From positions 66,931 to 130,930 of IMG/VR virus record IMGVR_UViG_3300014202_001521: a DNA stretch of 64,000 nt. The stretch is one strand, 5' to 3'. The position numbers were made by a program, and so were the translations under genes. Position 1 is the stretch's first letter. The number at the start of each line of letters is the position of its first letter. The notes beneath the pieces are model-generated. The model worked only from the letters and a program-made list of their open reading frames with translations. It was not told the origin of the DNA and searched no databases. The DNA comes from a virus. Positions 1,915 to 56,472 of this stretch are shown here, one piece after another.

Positions 1915-2661
1915 ATGTTCCTAGAATTTGTCAATCGTAAAAGAGCCAAGAAATTCAACGAAGATTTGATCCGTGCAACGGAAGGTAAGTCTGATTTGAT
2001 GCAAATTGGCACAGAAAAGGACGAACAGATATTCAAAGTTGTCATCAACCCAAAAGCGAAACAAACGATCTGTTTTATCGCAGGGATACACGGAAATGAA
2101 CAGGCTGGACCTTACGGAGTGTTGTCGTTCCTAGAGAGTGGATATCAAGTTCCTAGTCACAAGCGGGTTATCATTATTCCGTTAGCCAATCCGATTGGAT
2201 TTCAAAAGGATAAAAGAGAAAATGCCGATAATGAAGACATTAATCGGCATTTTCTCGACAAGGAACTAAAAGGTGAGTGCAAAATTCTATGGGATGCTCT
2301 CAAACAAGAAAATATAGATTTGCTCCATACGCTTCATGAAGACCCTTCTACAGATAAGTTCTATTTGTATTACACTCACCATAAAAAACTTGCCGAGGAC
2401 TTAAGAGAGCTAGCTAAAAAATATTTCGATATTCAAGAAAAAGGTGAGGCTTTGTCTAAAGACGAAAAACAGGGGCAGGGAGATAAAGTCCATAATGGTT
2501 TAGTCCCACTGCCCCATGTAGTTCGAGGCTGTCTCGAAGACAAAGCAATTATCGAACGAGCCATACCGTATATTACTACGGAAAGTCCTGGCAAGGTTGA
2601 TCTTAAAAAGAGAATCGCTTACAACAAAGACGCTATTAAAATGTCAATTAATTCATTTTAA
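1915..2661 (+). CDS. M14-type zinc carboxypeptidase / succinylglutamate desuccinylase-aspartoacylase family
   Basis: AGIHGNEQAG, NP.G...KREN...DINRHF, LHED, terminal TESP motifs. Confidence 0.75.
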   Translation: MFLEFVNRKRAKKFNEDLIRATEGKSDLMQIGTEKDEQIFKVVINPKAKQTICFIAGIHGNEQAGPYGVLSFLESGYQVPSHKRVIIIPLANPIGFQKDKRENADNEDINRHFLDKELKGECKILWDALKQENIDLLHTLHEDPSTDKFYLYYTHHKKLAEDLRELAKKYFDIQEKGEALSKDEKQGQGDKVHNGLVPLPHVVRGCLEDKAIIERAIPYITTESPGKVDLKKRIAYNKDAIKMSINSF

Positions 2662-3641
2662 CAAGGCGTTGACACTGGCTTAGTCTTCTCATAGATAATA
2701 TGAGCAAACTCTGGAATTAAAAAGCTACCGTCTTTCCTACTGGAAATTAATCCTTGTTTCATTTCATAATTCTTTTGAGTTTGCAACTGCTTATATGCAA
2801 CCAAAGAAATATGAGAAGGATAGTTTTCAGGGAAACGAGTATCTGGCTCATGTTCAAATAGGCTAGTAAGCCAGCCGCTTACATAATACTGGTGGCCAGA
2901 CCCACATTGATCGAGCTTGAACATATTCCTCCACAAGTCAGGATCATTGAAAGAAAGACAAATCCTTTCTATTGTGTCTTGAACGCGAGCCATGTAATCC
3001 TGATGCTTTGTAAACATCGGTGTAATCTTACGCCAACTGTCTACTAATTTGGTCCAATCGCTCAAATCACCACGAACGTCAATGGCTGGGAAGCCACAGC
3101 AGTACATACAGTAATTGTAATATGGCGACACCATATCAGCAAATGCAGCATAACGTGCAAAAATCGACCGCTGGTTAGACGTAGAAAATTCAGGCAAGAA
3201 TGCCTTAATCTCAGATGGAATCTTCTTCTCCAAAGCTGCCATTAGAGTGTCCAATGGCATTACTGTCAATGATGGAGAGTAAACAGTGATAGTTTCCTTT
3301 TCCTGGGATGTAGTGAATAAATCCCTGTAGGTATCAACGTGAGTAGCTACAATGCTTGTTAGCTCACACTGAAGAGTATACCAGATGATATCGGGATTGA
3401 TAACAATGCCCCAATGAGAATCCCACGCCGCCAACAGGTAGTCAATGTAGTTCTTATGAGAATACTCGCCAGTTATGTTGTCTTCAACATAAAATAGCTC
3501 TTGAACCTTTAGTCTTTTGCTATAGTTCTTCGGGTCGGGATATTCCGTCTTGGCATTAGACAATTTTTCAATTAGTTCATTTTTTGGATGCGGCTTGTAG
3601 TATTTTGATTCTTCTAGTTTTTCATTCAGTGTGATAATCAT
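2658..3641 (-). CDS. DUF4419-like protein
   Basis: AAWDSHWGIVINPDIIW, FSTS, CGFPAIDVRGDLSDW, SGWLTSLF resemble DUF4419. Confidence 0.6.
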   Translation of the reverse strand: MIITLNEKLEESKYYKPHPKNELIEKLSNAKTEYPDPKNYSKRLKVQELFYVEDNITGEYSHKNYIDYLLAAWDSHWGIVINPDIIWYTLQCELTSIVATHVDTYRDLFTTSQEKETITVYSPSLTVMPLDTLMAALEKKIPSEIKAFLPEFSTSNQRSIFARYAAFADMVSPYYNYCMYCCGFPAIDVRGDLSDWTKLVDSWRKITPMFTKHQDYMARVQDTIERICLSFNDPDLWRNMFKLDQCGSGHQYYVSGWLTSLFEHEPDTRFPENYPSHISLVAYKQLQTQKNYEMKQGLISSRKDGSFLIPEFAHIIYEKTKPVSTPC

Positions 3642-4246
3642 TAGTGCCTCGGATACTTTCTTCTCAATAATCTAACTACATTCATTGCGTCTTCTAATGC
3701 AGTATGCTGGTTTTTCATTTCCAGGTTTGCTCGCTTCATGCAAACATCTGTGCTGGGCAGAGTGTCGGCGTCCAACTCTGGATCGAAATACAGCATTGCT
3801 GGGTCTAATATACGGTGATTGAACTTAACAAGCAAGTTGTGATGTGGTAATTTTTCCAAAAACTTACTGTCAAAGTTACCAAAATTCTTACCCGCGACAT
3901 TGATCTTGATGATACCGAGATTGTTACGCCCAAGTGGGTCTTTGGGGTTGGGATACCCAGCTAATGTAGTAAGGAATGTATGCAAACGCGGTAGTAAGTC
4001 AGCGGGAGAACACACATTAATGCCGCTCTTTTGCCAATTGCCTATCTTTTTGAAAATCTCAGCGTGCATCCCTAACGCATAAGGTTCGCCAATATAATGA
4101 TCTTGCAGAATATAAGTCTGAAAGACTGGTAGGCTTTCAATAGGTAATTGACATTTCAAATCGTCAGCAATGGCAGCAAATTCAATAATGTTACAAATAT
4201 CGTGATTCAGACCAGTGGTTTCTATGTCAATAGAGACGTATTTCAT
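3641..4246 (-). CDS. DEDDh 3'-5' exonuclease (DnaQ/oligoribonuclease-like)
   Basis: SIDIETTGL, AGKNFGNFD, HTALEDA motifs. Confidence 0.85.
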   Translation of the reverse strand: MKYVSIDIETTGLNHDICNIIEFAAIADDLKCQLPIESLPVFQTYILQDHYIGEPYALGMHAEIFKKIGNWQKSGINVCSPADLLPRLHTFLTTLAGYPNPKDPLGRNNLGIIKINVAGKNFGNFDSKFLEKLPHHNLLVKFNHRILDPAMLYFDPELDADTLPSTDVCMKRANLEMKNQHTALEDAMNVVRLLRRKYPRH

Positions 4247-5342: not shown

Positions 5343-5570
5343 TTATACCAGTGCTTTTTTGCTGGTTTTCTCTTCGTTTTCATGTAGCCTCCTGTGGAGA
5401 TTCTCCAATTCCTTAAGAGGTAGATCATCAGCCTCAAACTGGTGTTTTTCCGCTAAATGTCTCTTTATGTCATCGGGAGTTAATGGGTGTGATGTTAAGT
5501 TCTTCAATGTCCATTCTGGCAACCTGCCAGGAATCCATGTTTTAATTCACAGAAAATCAATCTCTTCCAT
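5343..5570 (-). pseudogene. 75-codon frame with in-frame TGA at codon 8 (pseudogene, readthrough or sequence error)
   Basis: ATG coupled to the cobB stop (TAATG), AAGGAG upstream; MEEIDFL*IKTWIPGRLPEW...HLAEKH...LENLHRRLH...; not in ORF track. Confidence 0.45.
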
Positions 5571-6304
5571 TATGCTCCTTTTAACAACTGTTCCGCTAGC
5601 TTTGGCAATTCATCACCCGCCTTGCCAGTCAAGAGTGTATAATCCGCGATTCTCTTCGGATTTGGGTCAATGATATACTTGTTCTTGACCTGTGCGAAGA
5701 GTGGGATTAGTGCTGCGGCAGGATAGACCTGTGCCGATGTGCCCACACAAATGAAGACGCCATCGTTGTATTTAACTTCTTTAACCAACTCGCGGACCTG
5801 TTCAAAGTTAAATAGAACAGGTTCATCGAACCAAACTACGTCAGGCCGCATCTGACCACCGCACATAATGCATTTGTCGCCTAGCTTTACCGCTTCTTTA
5901 TGTTCTTCGGCAAATAGACAAGTGTATCTGGTGTCACCGTCTAACATACAACAGCTTTTATGCCATTCACACTTGCGTAAGTTAATGCTGCCGTGCATAT
6001 GCCTTACAAGGGCACAGCCTGCTCGCTCAAGCAAATCGTCAATGTTCTGTGTAATATTGACGACATTAAATTTGTCTTGGAGCTTGGCGATAGCCTTGTG
6101 TGCGGCGTTAGGCTCACACTTCTTGCATCCTTCGAAGCGTTGGCGGTAGAACTCAATGACTAGCTCTTTGTTTTTGGCCCAACCGCTAGGGTGTGCTACA
6201 TCTTCGACCTTATGGTTTTCCCATAGGCCATTGGAATCCCTGAACGTTGGGACGCCAGATTCGGCAGATAATCCTGCCCCTGAAAAAACTACGATTGTTC
6301 TCAT
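5570..6304 (-). CDS. cobB: NAD-dependent sirtuin deacylase (CobB/Sir2)
   Basis: GAGLSAESGVPTFR, TQNIDDL, HMHGS, RPDVVWFDE, VGTSAQVYPAA. Confidence 0.95.
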   Translation of the reverse strand: MRTIVVFSGAGLSAESGVPTFRDSNGLWENHKVEDVAHPSGWAKNKELVIEFYRQRFEGCKKCEPNAAHKAIAKLQDKFNVVNITQNIDDLLERAGCALVRHMHGSINLRKCEWHKSCCMLDGDTRYTCLFAEEHKEAVKLGDKCIMCGGQMRPDVVWFDEPVLFNFEQVRELVKEVKYNDGVFICVGTSAQVYPAAALIPLFAQVKNKYIIDPNPKRIADYTLLTGKAGDELPKLAEQLLKGA

Positions 6305-6310
6305 GGTATA

Positions 6311-6907
6311 TTAGAGTGGGTTTGTTAGGGTTTTCTTAACGTCAGGATGCAGAAGTAAGTCTAGTTCTTTTTGATCTTTGGATTGAAGGGCGTTTCTCAC
6401 TCTTGTTGAACTAAAACCATCTCTTGGTGTTGCCACCCATTGAAAACCGCCTTGATTAGCGATCCCTGGATACTTTTCTAGGCTGCAATTGTCTTCTCCA
6501 CATACAAACATAACGTTGATATCAGGGTGCATTTGTCTTATTTTGCTAACAACTTCACTTTTATTGCGCGGTGAATTTTGTCTTGATTCCCAATCGAAAA
6601 CTTTAATCCAATCCATTCCAGCATTATTGATTGCCTGATTAATCATCCCGATACGTTGGTCTATATTGAAGAAAGGTTCCCCAGGCCGTAATTTGCTCTT
6701 AACATATTCGTCATGTTTAGGGCTAATATAGCCGCCAACTATTTCATGTCCCTGTGATTCTAAATATTCTCTCGCCTGCCTAAACATGTCTAAATGTCCA
6801 CGGTGGATTGGAGCAAAAGCACCAGTAGCTAGAAGAACCGCTTTTCCTGGCTCATTCGCCTCACATATGTCCTCTAAGAGACGTTTAAATACATAAAACC
6901 TAAACAT
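6311..6907 (-). CDS. Nicotinamide/nicotinate mononucleotide adenylyltransferase (NMNAT/NadD family)
   Basis: TGAFAPIHRGH (HxGH), GGYISP.HD.Y, CGED, SSTRVR. Confidence 0.8.
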   Translation of the reverse strand: MFRFYVFKRLLEDICEANEPGKAVLLATGAFAPIHRGHLDMFRQAREYLESQGHEIVGGYISPKHDEYVKSKLRPGEPFFNIDQRIGMINQAINNAGMDWIKVFDWESRQNSPRNKSEVVSKIRQMHPDINVMFVCGEDNCSLEKYPGIANQGGFQWVATPRDGFSSTRVRNALQSKDQKELDLLLHPDVKKTLTNPL

Positions 6908-7742
6908 GGAATTATATATTACTTCAATATCATTATTATAGAAAGAACTAATGACGCCAAAGAAGCTAGTGTGGACATGACAGTAAGAACGGTTATGACC
7001 TTGGTGAAATAAGCGAGGTCATAAGTGTATTTGAGCATTTTCTCGTTTAGTTTTTCATTCTCTCTTCGCACTAACTCTTCGCAGAAAAAGACTGGCCCTA
7101 GATTCGCAGACTCAGCCAGCTTGTTGAACTCTTCAATAAGCTCCTCATCAGACAGTTGTTTTAGTCTGTAATAGTCGTGCGGCATCAATTAGTTATGCAG
7201 GCGAAGATAATTGCAGCTTGGGCAAAATTTTCCATTTCTATAAGAAGGATGCTGAGCCAAACCTGTAAAGCAACGTGGACATTTATTGATTGACCAGATG
7301 AAGAACCACATTATTAATACAAATACAATTACTGCTAAACACAGCAATACTGCGTACATATTAGTCCTTTGGCCAAACCCCTGATATATAACTACCTAAT
7401 AACAACACAAATACAATTGCGGCAATAGCTCCTGCGGCAGTGCCGTACCAAGCTGATTTTAACGAAATGTTAGAATGTGGATAGACAAATATCATCCAAA
7501 ATAACCACAATGTAGATGCAAAAGTGCTAACGAACGAAAAAGTGAATTTTATAGTTTCCATTGGGTTCTTTCATTGAAATTTATCTAACTTTTTAAATTG
7601 TATTGCATCCGAAAAGTGTGTCCAATAAGTCATGTTGTTGGCTTTTGGATTATTTATCTGCCACATAATAGATGTTAGGCTGACAAATATTAAAGCACAG
7701 GCTAAAAATGCTAAAAGCAGTTTTTTCATATTGCACCTGTAG

Positions 7743-8865: not shown

Positions 8866-9143
8866 AAAGACTCCTATGAGTTTACAAGATTCTCTTCTTT
8901 GTCAAAGTAGTATTTTAGCACATTTTCCATAGATGACCTAGTTTTTTTTAATTCTTTTACCAACGATTGTTCCATTTCATTAAGTGTGCCAAGATAGCCG
9001 TGTTCAACACAGTCTAGGTAGTTTTTCAATTGCATGTGGGCACCGATCAGCATAGAATGACGAACTCTGGTGGTTTGAAGGTCCATGTTTTTCTCCTCAT
9101 GGGAAATTCACAACATTTTAACGCCAGGGATATATAATACAAG

Positions 9144-9686
9144 ATGAAATTTTCACAATGGTTTGCTGAAATGGATCAACAACAGCCGCTACCCGACCCA
9201 AGGCAATTTTCCTATCTTGCCTGTGTCCTAGATTTGTCTAGTCAAACCCACTTGGAAGCCTTAGCAGAGAAGTGGGCTATGGAGAAAATGGGGCATAGTA
9301 TTCCTCCTAACTGGCGTTGGCGTTCCCACCACATGACCGTCTTACCGCCTCGTAGCGGTGGTCTAACACTGCCAGACCTAGAACTTTATAAGCCATTCTT
9401 TGGCCAAACGGTCAAACTACATGTTACCGCCATCGCCGCCGATGATAAATGCATGGCTGTAACCGTAAAAGCCGATCCAGCCAACTTCAAGATAGTTGCG
9501 CCAATACCTCATATAACTGTTGCACATAGCAATGATGTATCACCAGTTTACAGCAACAATCTATTGATGGATCGCAGTAAAATCCATGCTTTGGACACCA
9601 CTGAACTTCTCTCAACATTTGTCGCTGTAAAGAGAAATCAGTCAGATGTTTGGCCTATGCCTAGATTCCAGATAGCTAAGGCTTAA
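9144..9686 (+). CDS. 2H phosphoesterase
   Basis: Two HxT motifs (HHMTV, PHITV) about 70 aa apart. Confidence 0.75.
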   Translation: MKFSQWFAEMDQQQPLPDPRQFSYLACVLDLSSQTHLEALAEKWAMEKMGHSIPPNWRWRSHHMTVLPPRSGGLTLPDLELYKPFFGQTVKLHVTAIAADDKCMAVTVKADPANFKIVAPIPHITVAHSNDVSPVYSNNLLMDRSKIHALDTTELLSTFVAVKRNQSDVWPMPRFQIAKA

Positions 9687-11817: not shown

Positions 11818-12183
11818 TTATTGAACCTTGTCTTCTTTACCCCTTACTTGGACATAAAACACAAAAGAGTTTGGTAAAGGCTGTCCTGTCTTTTTATCAG
11901 TTTGTTGATGATAACGCAAGAATAATTTAGTATTTCCTTGGTCATAATTCAAGATATCTTTCAATCTTGATGCACATGCATTGATAAACTGGTGGCTTCC
12001 CGTAACTCTTAATCCATCATACATATACGTCGAGCCACGGTACTCATCTGGAACAATATTCAGTGGCTGAATTGGGATAGATGAGGGAAGTGTCTTCCAA
12101 AATTGCACTATCTCCTTCTTTTTAGCCTTCCAGGGCTTTTGGGTAAATTCTGCTTGTTCGCACCAATTCTTGAAACTGAACAT
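11818..12183 (-). CDS. Hypothetical protein with capsid-targeting-like N-terminus
   Basis: Likely start MFSFKNWCEQ at 12183, preceded by CATAAATACAAT. Confidence 0.6.
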   Translation of the reverse strand: MFSFKNWCEQAEFTQKPWKAKKKEIVQFWKTLPSSIPIQPLNIVPDEYRGSTYMYDGLRVTGSHQFINACASRLKDILNYDQGNTKLFLRYHQQTDKKTGQPLPNSFVFYVQVRGKEDKVQ

Positions 12184-15654: not shown

Positions 15655-16032
15655 ATGAAGACGTTTAAAGAGTATGTGGTTATGCGAGAAGATGAAGCAC
15701 CACCTGTTGGTGTAGACCCTGACATGTGGGCCGCTGCTAGTGAGCGTATGAGAAACTATTTGAGAACTCAAGCTCAAGGTGCCGTCCCACAGGCTCCACA
15801 GGCCATTCCACAGCAGCCTGTCACTTACAGGGCCGCTAGAGCGTTGGGCACTAGATCGTCGTTGGGTGGCCCAATCCAGGGTCAAACAGGTCAGGGACTA
15901 GAAAGTATCCCAGCAGGCGGTAGAGTACCTTCCCATTTAGTAGCCCAAATACCTAGTGGTGATATCGCCCCAGGTTGGGAAACCGCCACTAAGTTCTACA
16001 AGGGCCGCGACGGAAGAATCTACAAGAAATAA
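15655..16032 (+). CDS. Putative internal head protein
   Basis: Likely start MKTFKEYVVMRE, nearly identical to the T4 IPI N-terminus as I recall it; TATATA 9 nt upstream. Confidence 0.55.
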   Translation: MKTFKEYVVMREDEAPPVGVDPDMWAAASERMRNYLRTQAQGAVPQAPQAIPQQPVTYRAARALGTRSSLGGPIQGQTGQGLESIPAGGRVPSHLVAQIPSGDIAPGWETATKFYKGRDGRIYKK

Positions 16033-22827: not shown

Positions 22828-23628
22828 TTATGCTTGCTGTGGCTGCATCATTTGTTGTTGCGGCTGCTGTCCTAATCCCGTCACGCCTTGCCAACCTTGC
22901 TGCTGTTGTTGTTCCTGTGCTTTCCTCTTAACTACCTTGCTGGAAATAATGTTTAACGCCTTTATCACTTGCCAAAAACCTTGACGTATAATATGTCCGT
23001 CTTCAGTTATAAACAATGGCACGCTAAACCTTTTAGCCAGGTATTCACTGTCAGCTATTGGGACTTCTCTATCATTAATACCATGAACGATAATACTTTC
23101 AGGGTTCAAATGATTAGGTTGAACGTGGAATATCTTCCATGCTGGGCACAGAAGCAACATCGGAACTTCAGGGTGTTCTGCCGCTAAAGACAATGCAATA
23201 GCTCCACCTTGACTGCTGCCAATGATTATATCAGGAGTTCCATCTACTTTATTACGATACAATTCTTTGTTTTTCTCAATATGAGCCTGCCCAAAGTTTT
23301 GCAATGCTTTAGGGACGTTGAATCCATGAGCCAATCTACCAGCACCAGCAGCGAATATGTTAGCCTTGGTGTTGACTGTCTTGATATTATACCCTAATGG
23401 CTTTAATAACGCCCCGTAGTTACCAGTTCCAGGTATACGTCCACTCCACATACCTGTAATCCAGACAATGTTTAGATCGCTTACACTCGGCGCAGACGCA
23501 GCGAAGCTCCTGATGGGGTCTTTTGGCGCAACCAATCCTTGCTTTCGCATCGCAAGGTGGTACGGGTTCTGTCCTTGCAATTTAGCTATATCAGCAACTT
23601 GGGCTTCGAAAAACTCCTTAAAGTTCAT
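22828..23628 (-). CDS. Alpha/beta hydrolase with Gln-rich tail
   Basis: GSSQGG nucleophile elbow, VHGINDREV, DGH; likely start MNFKEFFE. Confidence 0.75.
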   Translation of the reverse strand: MNFKEFFEAQVADIAKLQGQNPYHLAMRKQGLVAPKDPIRSFAASAPSVSDLNIVWITGMWSGRIPGTGNYGALLKPLGYNIKTVNTKANIFAAGAGRLAHGFNVPKALQNFGQAHIEKNKELYRNKVDGTPDIIIGSSQGGAIALSLAAEHPEVPMLLLCPAWKIFHVQPNHLNPESIIVHGINDREVPIADSEYLAKRFSVPLFITEDGHIIRQGFWQVIKALNIISSKVVKRKAQEQQQQQGWQGVTGLGQQPQQQMMQPQQA

Positions 23629-23818: not shown

Positions 23819-24568
23819 ATGAATTTCAGACAATGGACAGAAGCGGCTGCTGAGTATAATCCCTACGCCTTTCATGCTATCATTCTAGCTGGCGGGCCTG
23901 GAAGTGGTAAAAGCCGTGTAGGACGCACAATCGCTGGTGCTTTCGGCTTCAATATCTCTGATAGTGACCGCCTTCTTGAACTAATGGCAGCCCATAGAAA
24001 AGAAGAATATCTGCTGGGTTTAACCAGCGGTCAGCCAGGTTACGACCAGAAAATGTCCAATACCAACAAAGCGGTAGAACTAAACGTAAAAAGAACCGCT
24101 CTGTGGCGACAGCAAGGAATACCTTACATTGTTGACATAACTGGAAGAGACGTTGGCTTAGTCTCCAAGATTAAAGAAGAACTAGAACAAGAAGGATACG
24201 ACGTATTCATGGTCTTCATTAATACTCCCCTTGAAACCGCCCGAAAAAGAAACAAGGGAAGAAGTAGAATCGTGGATGATGATTTTTTGGTAGATGCTTG
24301 GAACAAATCGAGAAAGTCTATTAGTGCCTATATCAACATCTTTGGTAAGAAGTTCTTGATGATAGACAATGACGATGATATTAATAATCGAGCTTCTCTG
24401 CCAGCAGTTGAAGCAAGAATCCCAAGGATGATGACTCATCTGCTTACCCCAAATCAAATAGAGAACCCAATCGGGGAAAAAAAGCTCCAAGACATGAAGG
24501 GCAAACCGATTAACCAAATCTCGACAGACAAACCATTACCGCAGGTGGCCAATGTTGGACTATATTAA
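23819..24568 (+). CDS. Zeta-toxin/AAA_33-like P-loop kinase
   Basis: LAGGPGSGKS, IVDITG, VFINTPLETARKRN..R. Confidence 0.75.
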   Translation: MNFRQWTEAAAEYNPYAFHAIILAGGPGSGKSRVGRTIAGAFGFNISDSDRLLELMAAHRKEEYLLGLTSGQPGYDQKMSNTNKAVELNVKRTALWRQQGIPYIVDITGRDVGLVSKIKEELEQEGYDVFMVFINTPLETARKRNKGRSRIVDDDFLVDAWNKSRKSISAYINIFGKKFLMIDNDDDINNRASLPAVEARIPRMMTHLLTPNQIENPIGEKKLQDMKGKPINQISTDKPLPQVANVGLY

Positions 24569-25168: not shown

Positions 25169-25640
25169 TCCAATCAAGAAAAAAGAAGCTAAAGTCCTGT
25201 TTTTGCACGGGTTGTTCTCAAACGGAGAACAAAGCTGTAAGTGTCATTCAATGCGTTGTGACGGCTATGAAGTAACCGCGCCGCCTCTCAATAACTGGTT
25301 TTTGTCTTGGGCTATAAGCTCAGTAAATCTCAACAGAATTAAACCAAATGTTATTGTTGGATCGTCCAGAGGTGGTGCGGTTGCTTTAAGCCTGAAAACC
25401 AAGCTGCCGCTTATCCTGCTCGCTCCCGCCTGGAAGTATTATGGTGTTAAATCCAAATTTACGAACAGATGCGTCGTGATTCATGGTGTTAAAGACACCC
25501 TGATCCCATATCAAGATAGCATTGAGCTAGTAAATAAGAATCCAAATGCCGAACTACTTCTAGTTGACGATGACCACAGGCTAAATTCTATTTTCACCCA
25601 CAGGTGGCTAATTAAGAAACTTGCTGAAGTAACCACTTGA
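25152..25640 (+). CDS. YqiA-like alpha/beta hydrolase (esterase)
   Basis: FLHGL, GSSRGG, IHGVKDTLIP, DDHRL. Confidence 0.8.
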   Translation: MLLKSDPIKKKEAKVLFLHGLFSNGEQSCKCHSMRCDGYEVTAPPLNNWFLSWAISSVNLNRIKPNVIVGSSRGGAVALSLKTKLPLILLAPAWKYYGVKSKFTNRCVVIHGVKDTLIPYQDSIELVNKNPNAELLLVDDDHRLNSIFTHRWLIKKLAEVTT

Positions 25641-26589
25641 CGCCTTCTTGCCCCAATGGTGGTGCATTTGGCATCTTACTCTGAAGAGTCTTGTTGACCA
25701 TATTCACCACCATTGGTGGCAAATCGCCGCTCGTATGAGCATATTGAGCAATCATTGGCTTCATCATCGGGTTGGCCATTACACCCTGACCCAAAGCATT
25801 CTGAAGCTGTTTCTGCCACAAATGCTTATTCGCGTAGATGTATTTATCTCTTAGTCCAGAACCACTTAGATTGAACTTAAATGCTCCTGTTTCTGGATTG
25901 TAACCCTGCCACTGTCCACTTCCTTGTGCCAAATTGCTCTTAGATATTAAGTCATAAAGCATCGGCATGACCTCTTTAGGCGGCTGAGCAATATTCATCT
26001 GCGGCGACGGAACTGCACCCTTCTGATGTAGTTTTGGCATCAGTTTCTGTGAAGAATCCAACATGTCTTTTAGCTCTTTATCGACACCCAAGAAGATTTG
26101 CAAACCCTGCTGATCCGCTTCGTGGGTTAAATGTGCCATTGCGGTCATTTTTGGCATTTTTGCTTGGCCGTAACTACCAGTTATCTTAACCCCGTCATCT
26201 TTTATTCTATAGGTAATTCCACCTACGTTACTTAATAACGTGGGATTGCTCTTTAGCAGACTGTTTATGGTAGCTTCGACGTTCCCACCATTGTTTTGAA
26301 GCTCTTGGTTGACGACATTCAATTCTTGTTCCGTTGGGAAAGTCCCATAGAAAGTCCAGGCTGGCGCTCTAGTACCACCAGATGCTGGCCGTGTCCACTC
26401 GCCGTGGGACCAGGAGGTAGCATTAGGGTCTTTATTATCTTTTTGGGCTATTGGGTCGTATGCTGATCGGTAAGCCATATACATAGCAGCTTCCATTGCT
26501 GGGTTTGAAAAAATTTGCTTGCCCGTCATTTTTTGAATTTGGGTTTCTCCAATTTCTTTTAACACTAACCAGTCCTGAAATCTTTGCAT
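25612..26589 (-). CDS. Hypothetical protein with capsid-targeting-like N-terminus
   Basis: MQRFQDWLVLKE; divergent from 26608 across 18 bp. Confidence 0.65.
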   Translation of the reverse strand: MQRFQDWLVLKEIGETQIQKMTGKQIFSNPAMEAAMYMAYRSAYDPIAQKDNKDPNATSWSHGEWTRPASGGTRAPAWTFYGTFPTEQELNVVNQELQNNGGNVEATINSLLKSNPTLLSNVGGITYRIKDDGVKITGSYGQAKMPKMTAMAHLTHEADQQGLQIFLGVDKELKDMLDSSQKLMPKLHQKGAVPSPQMNIAQPPKEVMPMLYDLISKSNLAQGSGQWQGYNPETGAFKFNLSGSGLRDKYIYANKHLWQKQLQNALGQGVMANPMMKPMIAQYAHTSGDLPPMVVNMVNKTLQSKMPNAPPLGQEGVKWLLQQVS

Positions 26590-26607: not shown

Positions 26608-29600
26608 ATGTTAAACTTTCGTAGTTTTTTGGAATATAGTGACCCGTTCTTCTTAGAGACGATCCTCCATCATCCCCAGCAGTGGAGCTACCTAAACCCT
26701 GAAACGGGCAAGAAATGGCGTCATGAAGACAAATATAAGCAATTAGCTAGAATTGTCAAAGATCAATCTAGGATGGGCGTCCACCCCAATAGACTTTGGG
26801 TTACATTCAGCGATGTGCCTAGAATCAACATTACAACGAAAGTTAAAAAAGATAAAAATACTCCACACGGTATATTCGCCTATCCAGTCAGCTATGTTTT
26901 GAAGAAAGAAGGTGCTGATTACGCTTCTGACCGTGCCTATATGATTGTTTTCAAAGTAAAAGGCAACGTGATCGAAGTAGGTCGAGACGATACCAAACCA
27001 AAGGACAAGAATCTAAACGCTCTTGTTAATAAAGATGATTTTCCAAGTGAACTTGATTACAGAAGAATCTCTTCTAAGTTCTATGATCTATCATATGACA
27101 CATATGATGCAACAAAAAAGAAACTTTATAGAGACTTTTCAGAGATTTTATCAGATGTAAGTAGCCATATTGCTGAAGCTGAAAGCGACGGCAGGGATTT
27201 GAAAAAACTTACCACCATTGAAGGACTCGCTAAAAGCTATACCGAAAGTGGATTCGCCACTTATTTGAAAGATTATTACGGCGGTACGATAGAAGGCGAC
27301 AATGTAATAATCAACAAACCATATCAGTATAACGATAAAGTAACGGTTGGCACCCATCCAATCCAGTATATGTTGGATAATGATGGTGATGCTGCGTATT
27401 ACATCAATGACATGAAGGCCAAACAAATCAAAGTAGCCAAAGCATTAGAAGATGAAGAGTTTAAAACGGCTTTGAGTAAAATGGCCTCACAGGTGCAGGG
27501 TAGAATAGACCATAAAAACAAGAAAGCAACCGACACAACCAGACCAATTATTAACAAGGTAGCGGAATTAGCCAAAGAATATGGCATTGATGATATTAAA
27601 CCACATATAAAGCGAATTAGCGCCAACAATACCTTCCATCGTGGCACGCAGTTTGTATACTTGCTACTCAAAGACATTGCTGGTGAAGTAGCCAACAAAA
27701 CAGGCAGAAATAGAGCTATTATTTGGGCTGGCATGTTGAAGAAAATAGGTTATACCCACGTTGTAGACACCAAACATAGTTCCGTTATCCATGCTGGCGA
27801 ACCAACTCAAGGTGTCTTTATGGACACCACACAAATCGAACCAGTCAGCGTTATCTTCAACAAGAAAAATGCTGATCCTAGAATGGTCCCACCAGGATTT
27901 CCTTGGACTGATGCAGATGCTGACCAACATTGGCAGAGCAGCGTAGGTCAACATTCTCGCACTGGATTAAAAACCCTAAAAGCTGGTGATGCGATTAGTA
28001 GCGGCGTTGACAAAAAGAACATTGTTTCCGTTCTTTCAAAGCGAATAGAACAGGTTAAAAACAGTGCTGGCTCTGATTTTTATGGCGATGAATTTCAGAA
28101 GAAAATATCCATATTAGTCAAGCTTACCAAGCAACTGAAAAGTTCTGTTGATCCAAATAACTTTGTGCAAAAGGATGAAGCTGAACGCACTCTCAAAAGA
28201 CTTAAATCACATGTTGAAGTCTTAAAAGATAAGTTGCTGTCAAATACTAAAGACAAGCAAATATCGCCAGCTATCCAAAAATATAATGATGACTTAAATT
28301 CTCGGTTTGACATGCTGGATAAGGTCATCAGTGAGCCTGGATTCAAAACTGGCACTGTCAAAAAGTTAGATGGATTCAACATAGAAGATTTTGTTACAGA
28401 TTTGCTAAAGAATAAAGGTCCATTAACCGCAGATGCGGTTAAGAAAGAGTTTATCAATTATGGCATTGGCAACCCATATGGCATGTGGGGGAATGTTGAA
28501 AGTCTTGTGTCAGATGGAAAGATTTCAAAAAAGTATTCCGACCTTTATGGCGGATATGTTTACTATTTATCAGGCCAAAAAATACCTTCTGTCGAAGATT
28601 ATGCTCCATATGTTATAAAAGCATTACAGAATACTTATAAAACCACAGAGGAGCTTGAAGAGATTCTTCAGGATAAGGTTCCCGCAGACATGTTGGAACC
28701 AATCCTGAGTAACATGGAATACGGCGTGTTTAGCGGTGATAACCAAATATCAAAAAGCAAGAAAGCAAGTGGTGAATGGGCTTGGCACATTGCTGGCCAC
28801 GACGTTGAAGGTAAGGAAACCGAAATCTACAAGGTAGCAATCCTTAATAAGCTTGAGGAAATGCAGAAGAAAGAAGCCACGTCTGCGATTCCAGCTAGAA
28901 ATATCATATTCTATTTTAAACATAATGAAAACGCTGATATCAAAAAAATACTTACCAAGTTAATTCAAGACAAAACAATCCACGTCGAAGAAGGAACATT
29001 TGGAAAAGACGAAATAGGAACATTGCATATAACAACCAACCCTGTTGCTGAATCCAGACCGCTGTATTATACAGACGTAAGGGATTTTATATACAATTTA
29101 TTTAAAAACGATGATGACAATGCCCTTGGAGACGATCCAATTAAAACTCAGGAAGGCATGAAGACCGCCCAAATAGCTAATAAAATAGCTTATGATTACA
29201 GTGTTGATTCAATTAGGGTGCAGTCAATACTTCAATACATGATTAAACATGGTGAACTTCATATTATTGAAGACCATCCAGAAAACTTTTGGGCAAAGAA
29301 AGTTAGTATTCATAAGCCAAAACCAGTTGCCGCGACAGCAACACCAGCCGTTACCCCTACAGTACCAGCCGCGACAACAACACCGACTCCAGCAGCGGCA
29401 CCACACCCTGGAACTACACCAGCGGCATCAGCCCATAAAGTCGCAGATGCTTATGGACATGACATTAAGGTGGGTGACACAGTTAAAAAGGTGGGGGAAC
29501 CAACCAAAGTTGGCACTGTTACAACTTTATCAGCAGGCAATTCGGTTGCTATTAATTGGGAAGATGGTGCGTATAGTGGAAATTATTACTATGGCACTTC

Positions 29601-30183
29601 CCTTATTGTGGTGAAGTCAGCACCAGCTGCACCTTGGCATGGTCTTGGTGCAGCACCAGCCGCACCAAAGGCTGCTTGGGCGGCTCCAACTCCAGAAGAA
29701 GTCAAGCAGACGACTTCTACAAAGGCTTTGGGTATTTTCAGTGGATTGCCAAAGGTTGCAAAACCTCTTCAATACGCAAGAGTTATTCGTGGTTTACACA
29801 CAATGCTTTCTTTCGATAATATTCTAAATGAATTGGAAGGTGTATTTGGAATCAAATTCAACCCTAGTGATCGTGAAGCAATTAAAAATGCTTATAACGA
29901 AGAAACCAATACAATTAATTACTATAAAGCTAGGGGACACTTGAAATTTCCGAAGGGTTTGTCAGCGGAACAAGCGTATTCTTCACAATTGGAGAAGTTC
30001 CCAAACCCACCGTATGTTACTATGGACGCTGACACTAATAAGGCGATTGATGATTTATTAGTTAAACATGAAGATGTGGCTGCCGTGAATTTAGTAAAGA
30101 AGGCTACACAGTTTGATACTGGTGCGGCTACTGGTGTTGTTATTTTGAAAAAGCTTGAATTGCATATAGAAGGCAAACTTTAA
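26608..30183 (+). CDS. Large (~1190 aa) multidomain putative virion-internal protein with possible ADP-ribosyltransferase-like N-terminal domain
   Basis: Likely start MLNFRSFLE; TPHGIFAYP...GYTHVVD...EPTQGVFMD..QI; Ala/Thr/Pro linkers; KOW-like IKVGDTV segment. Confidence 0.6.
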   Translation: MLNFRSFLEYSDPFFLETILHHPQQWSYLNPETGKKWRHEDKYKQLARIVKDQSRMGVHPNRLWVTFSDVPRINITTKVKKDKNTPHGIFAYPVSYVLKKEGADYASDRAYMIVFKVKGNVIEVGRDDTKPKDKNLNALVNKDDFPSELDYRRISSKFYDLSYDTYDATKKKLYRDFSEILSDVSSHIAEAESDGRDLKKLTTIEGLAKSYTESGFATYLKDYYGGTIEGDNVIINKPYQYNDKVTVGTHPIQYMLDNDGDAAYYINDMKAKQIKVAKALEDEEFKTALSKMASQVQGRIDHKNKKATDTTRPIINKVAELAKEYGIDDIKPHIKRISANNTFHRGTQFVYLLLKDIAGEVANKTGRNRAIIWAGMLKKIGYTHVVDTKHSSVIHAGEPTQGVFMDTTQIEPVSVIFNKKNADPRMVPPGFPWTDADADQHWQSSVGQHSRTGLKTLKAGDAISSGVDKKNIVSVLSKRIEQVKNSAGSDFYGDEFQKKISILVKLTKQLKSSVDPNNFVQKDEAERTLKRLKSHVEVLKDKLLSNTKDKQISPAIQKYNDDLNSRFDMLDKVISEPGFKTGTVKKLDGFNIEDFVTDLLKNKGPLTADAVKKEFINYGIGNPYGMWGNVESLVSDGKISKKYSDLYGGYVYYLSGQKIPSVEDYAPYVIKALQNTYKTTEELEEILQDKVPADMLEPILSNMEYGVFSGDNQISKSKKASGEWAWHIAGHDVEGKETEIYKVAILNKLEEMQKKEATSAIPARNIIFYFKHNENADIKKILTKLIQDKTIHVEEGTFGKDEIGTLHITTNPVAESRPLYYTDVRDFIYNLFKNDDDNALGDDPIKTQEGMKTAQIANKIAYDYSVDSIRVQSILQYMIKHGELHIIEDHPENFWAKKVSIHKPKPVAATATPAVTPTVPAATTTPTPAAAPHPGTTPAASAHKVADAYGHDIKVGDTVKKVGEPTKVGTVTTLSAGNSVAINWEDGAYSGNYYYGTSLIVVKSAPAAPWHGLGAAPAAPKAAWAAPTPEEVKQTTSTKALGIFSGLPKVAKPLQYARVIRGLHTMLSFDNILNELEGVFGIKFNPSDREAIKNAYNEETNTINYYKARGHLKFPKGLSAEQAYSSQLEKFPNPPYVTMDADTNKAIDDLLVKHEDVAAVNLVKKATQFDTGAATGVVILKKLELHIEGKL

Positions 30184-32431: not shown

Positions 32432-32863
32432 ATGATAAACTTTATCAGATGGATTAAAATAAGAGAAGCATGGAATCAAAGCACCGTATGGACACCAGAA
32501 CGTGTTGCTCAACAAAATGGTGGTCGTAGTCTTAACCAACCAGAAGATACCAATAAGGTAATTGGCAGATTTAATCCAGTTTTTCCAGAATCCCGTGGAA
32601 AAGCTGAAATTTTGGCAGACCTTGTTTCTAAAGCTACAGGCATACCAACACCAGATTTACTTTCTAGCAGAAAACAAGGGACGGCTGACGCAAGATGGAT
32701 ACTTTATGCTTTATTATTAGACGCTGGTAAAATATCTGGCGCAAAAGTTTTACAAATGATGGGTCAAAGAAATTTAATCCCAAGAAAATTACTAGCTGCT
32801 CGTAATAGCCCATTATATCAAAACCTACTAGCACAATCTCATGCCGCTTTAGTCGCACGCTAG
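32432..32863 (+). CDS. Hypothetical protein with capsid-targeting-like N-terminus
   Basis: MINFIRWIKIRE; ATAAATA upstream. Confidence 0.55.
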   Translation: MINFIRWIKIREAWNQSTVWTPERVAQQNGGRSLNQPEDTNKVIGRFNPVFPESRGKAEILADLVSKATGIPTPDLLSSRKQGTADARWILYALLLDAGKISGAKVLQMMGQRNLIPRKLLAARNSPLYQNLLAQSHAALVAR

Positions 32864-38401: not shown

Positions 38402-38992
38402 ATGCTAAACTTTAGGGGGTGGTTTATGGAGACTTTCAGCGTACCAAAGTCGCATATAAAAGTCAAGTTGCCTTCTGCTAAACAACCCAAAAACTTTTCC
38501 TGTGGGGCTTCCGCTTTAAGGGCTATCGCAGTCCATTTTAACGTCGGTCCTAACAACGAACAATTCTATATAGACAAGTGTAACACAACTTATAAAGATG
38601 GTACACACCCAAAAGATATTATTCGTGTTGCCCGTGAACTTGGCCTAACCGTAAGGTCTAAGTCCAAAATGTCCATCAAAGACCTACATGAGTATCTTGA
38701 TGACGGTATTCCTGTTGTCTGCTCCATCCAAGCATGGGGCGATCAGAAAAAATATCCCGACACCGACCACAGCGGGCATTATGTCGTCGCCATCGGCTAC
38801 ACCAATGACAAAATCTATTTCATGGACCCGTCAATTAAAGGCCACCGTGGATTCCTGCCTAATGACGAATTTATCGAACGCTGGCACGATGAAGAAGCTG
38901 ATGGCACCAAACTCAATCGCTATGGAATCGCCATCTGGAATCCCACAGCAATTAAAAAACAACATTTGAACAAAGTCAAAAAGATTCAATGA
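38402..38992 (+). CDS. Peptidase C39-like cysteine protease
   Basis: QPKNFSCGA, GHYVVAIGY, YFMDP. Confidence 0.85.
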   Translation: MLNFRGWFMETFSVPKSHIKVKLPSAKQPKNFSCGASALRAIAVHFNVGPNNEQFYIDKCNTTYKDGTHPKDIIRVARELGLTVRSKSKMSIKDLHEYLDDGIPVVCSIQAWGDQKKYPDTDHSGHYVVAIGYTNDKIYFMDPSIKGHRGFLPNDEFIERWHDEEADGTKLNRYGIAIWNPTAIKKQHLNKVKKIQ

Positions 38993-42756: not shown

Positions 42757-42769
42757 AAGGCAAACCGAA

Positions 42770-42782: not shown

Positions 42783-42814
42783 GAAAACTTTGGTACAATT
42801 GCAATTGCGGGTAT

Positions 42815-42860: not shown

Positions 42861-42879
42861 ACCCCTGTTTCCGCTAAGC

Positions 42880-42963: not shown

Positions 42964-43071
42964 CTTAAAGTTTCCTTTTAGTTAATATATGCAGCAAGCC
43001 GCAAATATTTTCGTGAAAATCATCAACTTCCCTTATCTTACGCCGAAAATTCGGTTTGTCAAGAAGATTTT

Positions 43072-44321: not shown

Positions 44322-44349
44322 TTTAACCTCTTTCGACTATATAACTTAA

Positions 44350-44685
44350 ATGAGAACGTTTCGCAAGTTTTTAAATGAAGTTTCACTATTAAATGAGCAA
44401 CCGCCAGGTGGCCCTCCTCCAATGGGTGGTCCACCTCCTGGTGGTTTAGGCGCTCCCGCTGGTTTACCCCCAGGTGGTCCACCATTAGGTGGTCCTCCAG
44501 GCGGTGGTTTACCTCCACCGATGCCAGGCGGCGGCGGTGCCCCGCCTATGGGCGGTCCTCCAATGGGTGGTCCACCTCCTGGTGGTCCAGGTGGCGCTCC
44601 AGGCGGTGGTATTATGAAACTGCCTGAACTTAATGTCTGGAAGATATTGGAAAAATTACTTTCAGGTGAAACTAAAAAACAGTAA
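44350..44685 (+). CDS. Pro/Gly-rich low-complexity protein with capsid-targeting-like N-terminus
   Basis: MRTFRKFLNE, repeated PP(P/M)GG units, short folded C-terminus. Confidence 0.7.
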   Translation: MRTFRKFLNEVSLLNEQPPGGPPPMGGPPPGGLGAPAGLPPGGPPLGGPPGGGLPPPMPGGGGAPPMGGPPMGGPPPGGPGGAPGGGIMKLPELNVWKILEKLLSGETKKQ

Positions 44686-48900: not shown

Positions 48901-50541
48901 ATGAGTGAATATAGATGGCTAACAGACCTTTCTCGACAGTTTTTAGAGAGGGATTACCTAGTAAATGGTCAAACTGTAGAAGATAGAATTGATGTAATAT
49001 GCACTACTGCTGAGCGGATATTGAATAAGCCTGGGTTCGCTCAAGCATTTGAGCGTAACTTAAAGAAGGGCTGGTATTCCCTTAGCAGTCCGATATGGTC
49101 TAATTTTGGTACAAAGCGTGGTCTACCCATCAGTTGCTTCGGTTCAATGATCGAAGATACGATGGAGAACATCCTCTATACTCACGCCGAAGTTGGCATG
49201 ATGACCAAACACGGTGGCGGCACCTCTGCGTACTTTGGGAAGCTTCGTGGACGTGGCGAGCCTATTAAGAACAATGGAGAAAGCTCAGGCTCCGTCCACT
49301 TTATGTCCTTGTTTGAGAATCTAATTAATATCGTCAGCCAAGGAACCACAAGGCGAGGTAATTTCGCCGCGTATCTCCCAATTGACCACAAAGACATTCC
49401 TGAATTTCTTGGAATCAGAAGCGAAGGCCATATGATTCAAGATTTGTCGTTTGGGGTATGTGTGCATGATGCCTGGATGGAAGAAATGATCGCAGGCGAT
49501 GCTGAGAAACGAAAGATATGGGCTAAAGTCCTAGAAAGCCGAACCAACAAAGGATACCCATACCTATTCTTTACAGACAATGTAAATAAGAATAAGCCAG
49601 ATTGCTACAGAGATTTTCTTATTACGCATTCCAATCTCTGTACGGAGATTATGCTTCCTGACACAGTAGATGAATCATTCGTCTGTGACCTTTCCAGCAT
49701 GAATATTCTCTATTTCGATGAATGGAAAGACACCAATGCAATCGAACTATTAGTCTACTTTCTTGACGCTGTAATGACCGAATTTATTGACAAGGCCAAG
49801 AAGGTTGACTTCATGCAGCGACCTGTTCGTTTTGCAGAGAGACACCGCGCACTTGGTATTGGCTGGCTTGGTTATCACAGCTATCTACAGAGTAAGATGA
49901 TTCCATTTGAAAGCATGGAAGCGAAGTACGCTAACGTCACTATCGCCAAGAACATGAAGGAAGCTGCCTACAAAGCTTCTGCAAAGATGGCTGAAGAATA
50001 TGGTGAGCCAGAAGTCTTGAAGGGCTACGGTCGCAGGAACTCTACATTATTGGCTATTGCGCCAACAAAATCTTCGGCGTTCATCATGGGTCAGGTTTCA
50101 GAGAATACAGAGCCTAATCGTGCCAATATTGTCATTAAGGATTTGCAGAAGGGTAAGTACACAATGAAAAACACTTACCTTGAGGCTTTGCTTGAAAGCA
50201 AGGGTAAGAACGATGAATCAACGTGGTCCAGCATATTGAAAAACTCTGGCAGTGTTCAACACTTAGATTTCCTTACTGACCATGAGAAGGCTGTATTTAA
50301 GACTTTCGCTGAGATTACGCCTAGAGAGATTATCATTCAGGCGGCTCAGCGTCAGAAATACATAGATCAGGCACAATCTATTAACATAATGATTCATCCA
50401 TCTATACCAATTAAGGATGTGAATGCTTTGATTATAGAAGGGTGGCAAATGGGTATCAAGAGTTTCTACTACCAATACTCAGTCAATGCCGCCCAAAATT
50501 TTGCTAGAAATATATTAGCGTGTTCTAGTTGTGAGGCTTAG
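48901..50541 (+). CDS. nrdA: Ribonucleotide reductase class Ia alpha subunit
   Basis: ISCF, SNLCTE, IAPTKSS, C-terminal CSSCEA. Confidence 0.95.
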   Translation: MSEYRWLTDLSRQFLERDYLVNGQTVEDRIDVICTTAERILNKPGFAQAFERNLKKGWYSLSSPIWSNFGTKRGLPISCFGSMIEDTMENILYTHAEVGMMTKHGGGTSAYFGKLRGRGEPIKNNGESSGSVHFMSLFENLINIVSQGTTRRGNFAAYLPIDHKDIPEFLGIRSEGHMIQDLSFGVCVHDAWMEEMIAGDAEKRKIWAKVLESRTNKGYPYLFFTDNVNKNKPDCYRDFLITHSNLCTEIMLPDTVDESFVCDLSSMNILYFDEWKDTNAIELLVYFLDAVMTEFIDKAKKVDFMQRPVRFAERHRALGIGWLGYHSYLQSKMIPFESMEAKYANVTIAKNMKEAAYKASAKMAEEYGEPEVLKGYGRRNSTLLAIAPTKSSAFIMGQVSENTEPNRANIVIKDLQKGKYTMKNTYLEALLESKGKNDESTWSSILKNSGSVQHLDFLTDHEKAVFKTFAEITPREIIIQAAQRQKYIDQAQSINIMIHPSIPIKDVNALIIEGWQMGIKSFYYQYSVNAAQNFARNILACSSCEA

Positions 50542-55982: not shown

Positions 55983-56004
55983 TTGTAGTTTTAGAAAGGG
56001 AATT

Positions 56005-56472
56005 ATGGAGTTTAAGAATTTTTTGCTTACAGAACAGAAAGGTTATCTAGCTCATAAGGTTAATGATGTATTAACTGGCATCCACGAATTGCTTGCGGCA
56101 AAGAAGCAAATGGGTGCAAAACAGATGGTTAGAAACGCGGAAGACGTTGCGAACCAGATTCGCAAAATTCTTCATTCAGCTTGGCCACGCTCGGAACATA
56201 AGTATTTAAAGGTCTTGCAACAATGTGGAGTTGCACTGATGAAAGCCATTGAGGACAAAGGCGACTTGCCCGACGTGTTTAATAGCGTAAGATCAGAGTT
56301 GGAAAAGCTGAGTCACAGGTTCCGAGTTCCAGCGAACAAGCTAGGCACAGGCAAGGAAGACACGCCAAAGCGTCCAGAAGGCCCACCACCTGGACAGGAA
56401 CAGGCACCGCTGCCTCCGACACAGCAGCCAACGATGCCACAACAAGGCGGGCCACCACCAATGGGAATGTAA
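56005..56472 (+). CDS. Hypothetical protein with capsid-targeting-like N-terminus and Pro/Gln tail
   Basis: MEFKNFLLTE. Confidence 0.6.
   Translation: MEFKNFLLTEQKGYLAHKVNDVLTGIHELLAAKKQMGAKQMVRNAEDVANQIRKILHSAWPRSEHKYLKVLQQCGVALMKAIEDKGDLPDVFNSVRSELEKLSHRFRVPANKLGTGKEDTPKRPEGPPPGQEQAPLPPTQQPTMPQQGGPPPMGM

Follow-up and report, generated by a model that had tools for sequence, protein, structure and literature searches.

At least ten unrelated genes in the stretch of viral DNA studied here (hereafter the window; 64,000 nucleotides, IMG/VR record IMGVR_UViG_3300014202_001521) begin with a peptide like that which loads proteins into the T4 head, and a set of enzymes is therefore probably packaged in the capsid of this phage. 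We give a probability of about 0.6 to the reading that these shared N-termini act as capsid targeting sequences of the T4 type and that the proteins bearing them are packaged. The source phage is a relative of T4 with a genome of roughly 600 kb. The window lies on a 103-kb contig representing ~21% of a genome, and the contig is syntenic with a 595-kb relative, LR756511.1, at ~60-70% amino-acid identity.

A common leader precedes unrelated proteins

The original prediction had listed 13 genes of the window with a shared N-terminus, and every start codon and peptide was found where it had been placed (Table 1; genes are named by the position of their start codon). The tight motif M-x(1-3)-F-x-x-[WFY]-hydrophobic-x(0-4)-E describes ten of the 13. 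Two more, genes 56005 and 6907, probably fit as members through their relatives: the orthologue of 56005 in LR756511.1 begins MEFKKFLITE, is 76% identical and retains the motif, and 11 of 13 homologues of 6907 have a canonical MKxFxEWL leader. The membership of gene 1915 is doubtful because it has neither a Glu site nor an adjacent promoter element. Orthologues in LR756511.1 also carry the leader for genes 38402 (MLEFRQWFEA), 44350 (MRSFRQYITE) and 12183 (MLSFREWCE).

As had been predicted, the extensions stand before unrelated folds, with Pfam reporting 2H, cytidylyltransferase, C39, P-loop kinase and hydrolase domains. The individual assignments (NMNAT-like, 2H, M14-like, C39, P-loop kinase) agree with Pfam, the agreement being weak for the alpha/beta hydrolase. 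Catalytic motifs are kept in several of the carriers, including the 2H HxT pair, the NMNAT motif, the C39 cysteine and the P-loop. The 1191-aa protein, previously labelled ART-like, gave no Pfam or ESM atlas match; its one PHROG match, with a family of unknown function, is weak (E 0.0075), and BLASTP against the T4 proteins, including Alt, ModA and ModB, returned nothing; the label is therefore without basis. A megablast search of 12 kb of the window against a phage collection gave no match.

Table 1. Leader-bearing genes of the window and their promoter-like elements. Positions count from the first letter of the window; bits are scores with the leader HMM.
Gene	Product	Coordinates	Strand	N-terminal leader	Bits	Element	Remarks
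1915	M14/AstE-like carboxypeptidase	1915..2661	+	MFLEFVNRK	4.5	none	no Glu site; doubtful carrier
6907	NMNAT-like cytidylyltransferase	6311..6907	-	MFRFYVFKRLLE (long, divergent)	3.2	6913-6919	Pfam PF01467 from residue 26
9144	2H (CNPase-like) phosphoesterase	9144..9686	+	MKFSQWFAE	10.3	ATATATA at 9130-9136, 7 nt before ATG	Pfam PF08302; Foldseek match CNPase
12183	121-aa basic protein	11818..12183	-	MFSFKNWCE	8.3	ATAAATA at 12188-12194, 4-nt spacer
15655	125-aa basic protein, no assigned function	15655..16032	+	MKTFKEYVVMRE	12.6	15640-15646	pI 9.7
23628	weak alpha/beta-hydrolase-like protein	22828..23628	-	MNFKEFFE	12.5	none adjacent
23819	P-loop kinase (AAA_33 / Zeta-toxin-like)	23819..24568	+	MNFRQWTE	12.5	23807-23813, 5-nt spacer	Pfam domain from residue 21
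26589	325-aa protein, no assigned function	25612..26589	-	MQRFQDWLVLKE (long variant)	8.4	26594-26600, 4-nt spacer
	divergent spacer, 18 nt	26590-26607				palindromic TATATATA, -10-like element on both strands	common to genes 26589 and 26608
26608	1191-aa protein, no assigned function	26608..30183	+	MLNFRSFLE	11.6
32432	143-aa very basic protein	32432..32863	+	MINFIRWIKIRE	9.2	ATAAATA at 32421-32427, 4-nt spacer	pI 10.7
38402	C39-like cysteine peptidase	38402..38992	+	MLNFRGWFME	16.1	38390-38396, 5-nt spacer	Pfam PF13529 + PF03412; top score
44350	111-aa basic Gly/Pro-rich protein	44350..44685	+	MRTFRKFLNE	10.7	44337-44343
56005	155-aa basic protein	56005..56472	+	MEFKNFLLTE	5.8	none adjacent	Shine-Dalgarno-like sequence

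The leader is enriched far above chance and confined to N-termini

A scan of N-termini against shuffled controls, together with a motif HMM, had been proposed with the original prediction, and it bore the enrichment out. On the contig the tight regular expression matched 14 times, against a mean of 1.2 in shuffled sequences (maximum of 5 in 500 shuffles), and in LR756511.1 it matched 46 times against 4.8. An HMM trained on the leaders of LR756511.1 scored at least 9 bits for 14 of 172 contig genes; in KVP40 (390 genes) and phiKZ (365 genes) a single gene each reached that score. When the scores of internal Met residues served as the control, 27 contig N-termini surpassed their 99.5% quantile. 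High-scoring matches were confined to the N-terminal Met, and two apparently internal ones turned out to be mis-called upstream starts; internal leader copies, which would be a sign of polyprotein junctions, were sought in the proteins here and none was found.

Beyond the window, the contig holds 6 or 7 further members. We count at least 12-14 carriers on the 103-kb fragment (~8% of contig genes) and at least 32-46 in LR756511.1 (3-4% of genes). Carriers were not enriched among genes without a LR756511.1 orthologue (7/18 versus 77/172). Two candidates were set aside: gene 13367 (MKTFLFW...) has a leader-like score, but its next residues form a hydrophobic membrane segment and the anchor F is missing from the orthologue, and gene 30863 (MDNFTNYRE) was dropped since the motif is absent from its orthologue.

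The leader is conserved at the protein level as a portable add-on

The leader spans ~10-12 residues directly behind the initiator Met and is kept at the protein level while its codons are free to vary: TTT/TTC and GAA/GAG alternate, and W, F and Y interchange at the aromatic site. In the 2H enzyme, M1, F3, W6 and E9 are invariant in 14 homologues with identity down to 54%, and the leader is followed by a linker of variable length. In general the anchor is F (rarely Y) with W/F/Y three residues on, invariant within orthologue families; this aromatic pair itself defined the leader set for the position statistics. Measured from the anchor, the Glu peaks at F+5, F+6 and F+8, mostly at F+5 or F+8, with a hydrophobic residue at F+4 or F+6, and P3 is often W, F or Y, not L/I.

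The Pfam domains of carriers begin at residues 21-50, and across the 2H, cytidylyltransferase, C39, P-loop kinase and hydrolase domains the starts span residues 17-50. Consistent with a separate module, the AlphaFold2 model of the 9144 protein places a helix at residues 3-11 and coil at 12-18, with the core starting near residue 19, and one NMNAT homologue is without any leader. The leader is thus a portable add-on to unrelated folds. In addition, motif proteins are more basic than the remaining proteins, with a median pI of 9.1 versus 7.2 on the contig (p = 0.02) and 8.4 versus 6.7 in LR756511.1 (p = 7e-4).

A late-like element abuts the start codons

In ten of the 13 genes a T4-late-like TA(A/T)ATA element precedes the ATG by 4-8 nt and a Shine-Dalgarno sequence is lacking, from which we infer that these genes are probably expressed late, from leaderless mRNAs. 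The position of the element peaks 4-5 nt ahead of start codons. Among element-adjacent genes, 0 of 23 and 2 of 60 have a Shine-Dalgarno-like sequence, compared with ~40% of other genes, and ATG makes up 87-90% of the starts in the element-adjacent group, a combination that would fit leaderless late transcripts. Divergent element-adjacent starts can lie just 11-21 nt apart; the spacer at 26590-26607 offers no space for a Shine-Dalgarno leader. Some tail and head genes with a Shine-Dalgarno sequence have the same element 16-40 nt upstream.

The reading of TA(A/T)ATA as a late promoter would follow from its resemblance to the T4 element. Against this reading, gp47 and gp46 come immediately downstream of gene 44350, one of the genes with the element. 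A gp55 homologue was sought with the T4 protein in the contig and LR756511.1 and was not detected; gp55 diverges fast, so this result is uninformative. A search of sequencing runs for expression listed no RNA run, and one DNA run with a 0.06 share of words.

The leader is equivalent to that of the T4 internal proteins

The T4 starts given in the original prediction (IPI, MKTFKEF; IPII and IPIII, MKTYQEFIAE) agree with the T4 sequences, and the function ascribed to them, directing head packaging with cleavage by gp21, is documented (PMC8442874; PMC9026906). When the HMM trained on LR756511.1 was run on 267 T4 ORFs, the top five were gp61.1, IPIII, IPII, IPI and gp57B, so that the internal proteins took ranks 2 to 4, at 10.7-11.2 bits. 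The T4 leader, M-K-T-[FY]-x-E-F-hydrophobic-x-E, is likewise about ten residues long, has aromatics at positions 4 and 7 and is portable across unrelated proteins, and its cargo is highly basic (PMC8442874); the hydrophobic-x-Glu that follows its aromatics has a putative counterpart here. Mutagenesis of the IPIII leader showed that residues 4 and 7 drive targeting and residues 8 and 10 drive processing (PMC9026906); the positions conserved here correspond to these functionally mapped ones, the processing site being a putative one.

There are also differences. T4 has three known carriers, whereas far more are found here, recognisable enzymes among them. The Glu lies at F+6 in T4 but here usually one residue earlier or two later, and the gp21 motif is L/I-x-E (PMC9026906). 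The T4 internal-protein genes have Shine-Dalgarno leaders, whereas most genes here appear leaderless behind the late-like element.

The lineage also has T4-type head genes. LR756511.1 encodes TerL, the portal, an S77 protease, a coiled-coil scaffold-like protein and a gp23-type capsid protein. A Peptidase_S77 search of the window's own contig gave no match, because the contig is a 21% fragment, and no head genes lie on it. A contig from JGI sample 3300014198 also has the T4-type row of genes for the S77 protease, the scaffold-like protein and Gp23, and this sample holds an NMNAT identical to the window's as well; for both the proteins of this row and the window's NMNAT, the longest contig listed is 623,153 bp. 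Through the relative, the same-sample contig and this shared listing, such head genes plausibly belong to the window's phage too.

A packaging model and its alternatives

In the model that we prefer, the leader would form a short amphipathic helix that docks the protein on the scaffolding core of the prohead by means of two aromatic residues, an F near position 4 and a W/F/Y three positions on. At the hydrophobic-x-Glu site behind this pair, the S77 (gp21-type) prohead protease of the lineage would cut and set the mature protein free inside the head, and the cargo would probably enter the next host along with the DNA. The proposed late, leaderless synthesis would coincide with prohead assembly. 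Element and leader together would make a compact unit of ~45 bp that could in principle turn any captured gene into virion cargo, and two such units may sometimes stand back to back around one palindromic TATATATA. Candidates for delivered enzymes, judged by their domains, are the NAD-salvage NMNAT, the CNPase-type 2H phosphoesterase, the peptidases and the kinase. We advance more tentatively, at somewhat below even odds, the general proposal that huge T4-related phages use this unit (a late -10 element, a leaderless AUG and a capsid-address peptide of 10-12 codons) to make captured genes capsid cargo, so that dozens of finished enzymes would leave the virion as the DNA enters the cell, ahead of any phage gene expression. 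Counterpoints to packaging are a scale far beyond anything shown for T4, the shifted Glu with its often aromatic P3, and the fact that gp61.1 and gp57B match the leader model with no head role annotated in the T4 record.

These same two T4 proteins, as well as the number and variety of carriers, which would be unusual for capsid cargo, could instead speak for a docking or regulatory peptide whose partner is not the prohead (another phage assembly, a chaperone, or a protease-controlled degron or activation peptide), with the proteins acting unpackaged in the producing cell; a short amphipathic helix on a flexible linker, as modelled, might bind many partners. We consider this unlikely: among such peptides, experimental characterisation exists only for the T4 capsid targeting sequences, the match covers the residues mapped for targeting and for processing, and the basic bias and late-like promoter context of the carriers fit head loading. 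That the proteins are loaded only as assembly or DNA-condensing components of the core, not as enzymes for the next host, is suggested by the small Gly/Pro-rich or very basic carriers 44350, 32432 and 15655, which resemble structural or DNA-binding fillers, and by the degradation of most T4 core proteins once assembly is done (PMC9026906). It appears rather improbable given that several carriers are predicted to be intact enzymes with conserved catalytic motifs and that T4 is known to inject active cargo, namely IPI and Alt (PMC9026906).

Could the conserved start be a nucleotide or nascent-peptide signal for the translation or stability of leaderless late mRNAs, with no role in the mature protein? 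The motif is present in half of the leaderless-type genes of LR756511.1 against a few per cent of others, and the first codons are A/U-rich. Yet the other 30 of those 60 genes lack the motif, ~25 motif genes are not leaderless (several have a clear Shine-Dalgarno sequence), synonymous codons vary around invariant aromatic and Glu residues, and the T4 internal-protein genes have the same leader behind an ordinary Shine-Dalgarno sequence; we hold this account to be highly improbable. Chance resemblance, or common descent of a single N-terminal domain, is barely credible: the motif is short and single chance matches do occur in KVP40 and phiKZ, but the shuffle and internal-Met controls give roughly tenfold or greater enrichment, and the leaders precede unrelated Pfam folds.

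Comparison with known packaged proteins

For the packaging model, T4 Alt is a precedent of an active enzyme, an ADP-ribosyltransferase, that is head-loaded, trimmed by the prohead protease and injected; it differs in being processed at both termini (PMC9026906), and no Alt homologue was found here. The giant phages phiKZ, 201phi2-1 and SPN3US have dozens of packed ejection or inner-body proteins, cleaved after Glu by a diverged gp21 homologue (gp175, gp245). Their cleavage motif, however, is S/A-x-E, the propeptides are long and there is no common short N-terminal tag. The leader model gave a single, chance-level match in phiKZ.

If the leaders work as in T4, the proteins brought into the cell would be far more numerous than in any model phage shown. 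The imported set would include metabolic and RNA- or nucleotide-processing enzymes, with which NAD-depleting or cyclic-nucleotide defences could be weakened ahead of any transcription. Virion-delivered effectors of uncultured T4-related huge phages could then be predicted from the leader by a simple sequence rule, and promoter, leaderless start and tag together would be nature's parallel to the T4 system engineered for packaging proteins.

The hypervariable internal-protein loci of T-even phages resemble the present arrangement in placing diverse cargo genes behind one conserved leader (PMC3012670). Theirs is one locus of small anti-restriction proteins, whereas the carriers here are found in many parts of the genome, frequently as units of one gene with a promoter element to itself.

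The N-terminal leader is enriched above chance and conserved at the protein level

We checked in the sequence each of the 13 N-terminal peptides that the original prediction had likened to T4 internal-protein starts, and all are present where they had been placed; when all ATG codons of the contig were scanned, more motif members came up outside the window. For comparison we used the whole sequence of a complete relative, the uncultured phage LR756511.1 (595,163 bases). The 96 instances from the two sequences yield the consensus M-[KLR]-[TNS]-F-[RK]-[EQD]-[WFY]-[LVFI], followed by an immediate E or by x-L-[KR]-E. Tested against 500 shuffles, the control proposed originally, the motif lies above chance: the tight pattern was observed 14 times on the contig (shuffle mean 1.2, maximum 5) and 46 times in LR756511.1 (mean 4.8, maximum 11). 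Internal-Met scores gave a further control: their 99.5% quantile was exceeded by 27 N-termini on the contig and 50 in LR756511.1. The leader model found no true internal copies of the leader; two high-scoring "internal" matches were rejected, being real gene starts whose ORF calls had run upstream.

The leader is conserved at the protein level, since codons for the anchor Phe (TTT and TTC) and the Glu (GAA and GAG) vary while the aromatic and Glu residues stay, the second aromatic being W, F or Y. Fourteen 2H-enzyme homologues, with identity down to 54%, all keep M1, F3, W6 and E9, and the linker behind the leader is variable in sequence and length. The NMNAT family has the canonical MKxFxEWL start in 11 of 13 homologues and lacks the leader in one.

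The leader matches the T4 capsid targeting sequence

The T4 record bears out the internal-protein starts given in the original prediction: IPI begins with MKTFKEFTST, IPII and IPIII with MKTYQEFIAE. The capsid targeting sequence MKTYQEFIAE undergoes one cleavage and then exits the capsid (PMC8442874). Head incorporation of IPIII needs its first ten residues only, of which residues 4 and 7 mainly govern targeting and residues 8 and 10 processing, and gp21 cleaves after Glu in L/I-x-E (PMC9026906). In the motif described here, the equivalents of these four positions are, in order, the anchor Phe, the second aromatic, the hydrophobic residue after it and the Glu. When all T4 ORF N-termini were searched with a profile HMM trained on LR756511.1 leaders only, the first five places among 267 ORFs went to gp61.1, IPIII, IPII, IPI and gp57B. 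Genes reaching at least 9 bits numbered 14/172 on the contig, at least 32/1061 in LR756511.1, 5/267 in T4, 1/390 in KVP40 and 1/365 in phiKZ. T4 gp61.1 and gp57B score level with or above the T4 internal proteins.

The leader precedes separate domains

Pfam domains start at residue 21 in the kinase, 24 in the C39 protein, 26 in the NMNAT and 50 in the M14-like protein. For the 2H enzyme, AlphaFold predicts a helix at residues 3-11 (modest confidence), coil at 12-18 and a confident core from about residue 19; by structure comparison, this core matches CNPase-type 2H phosphodiesterases. Judged by these boundaries and the model, the leader is an add-on to separate domains. Proteins that bear it are more basic than the rest, and T4 internal proteins are likewise highly basic. 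From the payload originally listed, the NMNAT-like, 2H, M14-like, C39 and kinase members stand and the hydrolase does so weakly; the "ART-like" label of the 1191-aa protein (gene 26608) is without support.

The NMNAT-like and SIR2-family pair could form an NAD-handling module. Rather than enzymes, the two basic, low-complexity leader-bearing products could be internal proteins, either of the matrix or associated with DNA.

A late-promoter-like element lies close to the start codon

The element (A/C/T)TA(A/T)ATA stands 4-8 nt before ATG in 10 of the 13 leader genes, with no -35 box apparent upstream. Across the contig and LR756511.1, its distance to the start codon shows a sharp peak at 4-5 nt and a further, broader cluster at 16-40 nt. 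The apparently leaderless class (4-5 nt) comprises 23 contig genes and 60 LR756511.1 genes, half without the leader motif. Shine-Dalgarno-like sequences occur in 0/23 and 2/60 close-element genes, versus about 40% elsewhere, and the start codon is mostly ATG. The element resembles the T4 late promoter, TATAAATA, and under T4 geometry transcription would begin at or beside the A of ATG; we infer that the arrangement represents leaderless late expression. Several tail and head genes are preceded by the element plus a Shine-Dalgarno leader, and the element is mostly missing ahead of replication and nucleotide-metabolism genes.

In several divergent pairs, the start codons are separated by just 11-21 nt. 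In the 26589/26608 pair, the spacer holds a single palindromic TATATATA that is -10-like on both strands. A second contig pair lies left of the window; in these two pairs the start codons are 18-20 nt apart, and one such palindrome serves both genes of each pair. Similar divergent pairs, with spacers of 11-21 nt, occur in LR756511.1.

Capsid targeting is the best explanation of the leaders

Could the leader instead be a translation signal? In LR756511.1, 30 genes have both motif and close element, 30 have the element only, and about 25 real motif genes are without the element, several of these with clear Shine-Dalgarno sequences. Leader motif and leaderless arrangement are thus separable, and T4 internal-protein genes themselves have Shine-Dalgarno leaders; together these observations argue against a translation signal. 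We consider capsid targeting the best explanation, with a probability of roughly 0.6. Packaging, cleavage and ejection of the carriers are predictions from sequence and from the T4 analogy.

Reviews already suggest that T4-like phages diversify their cargo by the targeting-sequence mechanism known from T4 (PMC9026906), and our literature search found no paper linking capsid targeting sequences to huge phages. New here are the scale, the predicted enzyme cargo and the joining of late-like element, apparently leaderless start and tag in one compact unit.

The phage very probably has T4-like head machinery

LR756511.1 encodes a Peptidase_S77 protein (Pfam E 6.7e-28) 35% identical to T4 gp21, within a T4-like row of large terminase, portal, 616-aa protein, S77 protease, 310-aa protein and gp23-type capsid protein. 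The Glu/Lys-rich, helical 310-aa protein looks like a scaffold. The window's contig (linear IMG/VR virus record, 103,371 bases, 21% complete by CheckV) has no head genes. In JGI sample 3300014198, one contig bears a protease 84% identical, in the same gene row and adjoining a Pfam Gp23 protein, and an identical copy of the window's NMNAT is also on a contig of that sample; for both proteins, protease and NMNAT, the longest contig listed is 623,153 bases. Since the sample holds both and the figure is shared, the window's phage very probably has this S77 protease/scaffold-like/Gp23 machinery, the window and the head-gene row lying on separate contigs so far.

The gp23-type capsid protein begins with MNANAKFLNE-A or MSANAKFLNE-A; the hydrophobic-x-Glu site that this places at residue 10 is similar to the latter half of the cargo leader.

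Features with coordinates
Feature	Sequence	Position	Observation
NMNAT-like gene directly adjoining SIR2-family gene	window	5570-6907	same pair on JGI contig L076
Small membrane protein	window	13367-13693	leader-like start MKTFLFW and close promoter element, then hydrophobic segment; not counted as member
Spacer of 26589/26608 pair	window	26590-26607	18 nt
Dense tRNA region	window	36500-43100	many short minus-strand ORFs listed here are tRNA-gene read-through
Basic leader-bearing protein	window	44350-44685	Gly/Pro-rich low-complexity stretches, GGPPP-type
Basic leader-bearing protein	window	56005-56472	Gly/Pro-rich low-complexity stretches, GGPPP-type
Large ribonucleotide reductase subunit	window	48901-50541	546 aa
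Large ribonucleotide reductase subunit	LR756511.1	444162-448055	1297 aa
Second divergent pair	L001 (contig left of window)	~6740-6759	
gp23-type capsid protein	L075 (same-sample contig)	5486-6922	
gp23-type capsid protein	LR756511.1	523506-524981	
ADP-ribosylglycohydrolase-family gene	L075	13193-14062	few kilobases from head genes
T4 gp61.1	AF158101	18966-19130	function unknown; leader-like start MKTFKEFIKED
T4 gp57B	AF158101	73952-74410	function unknown; leader-like start MMEFKDFSTG

About 95 kb of the contig is syntenic with LR756511.1 (392.7-488.1 kb), amino-acid identity being typically 60-70%. Its T4-type genes encode a gp46/gp47-like nuclease, helicase, DNA polymerase, ribonucleotide reductase and CTP synthase, together with tail sheath, tail tube, gp15-like sheath stabiliser and baseplate hub. 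The ribonucleotide reductase match with LR756511.1 picks up again past an insertion of about 750 aa in the latter, which may be an intein or homing element.
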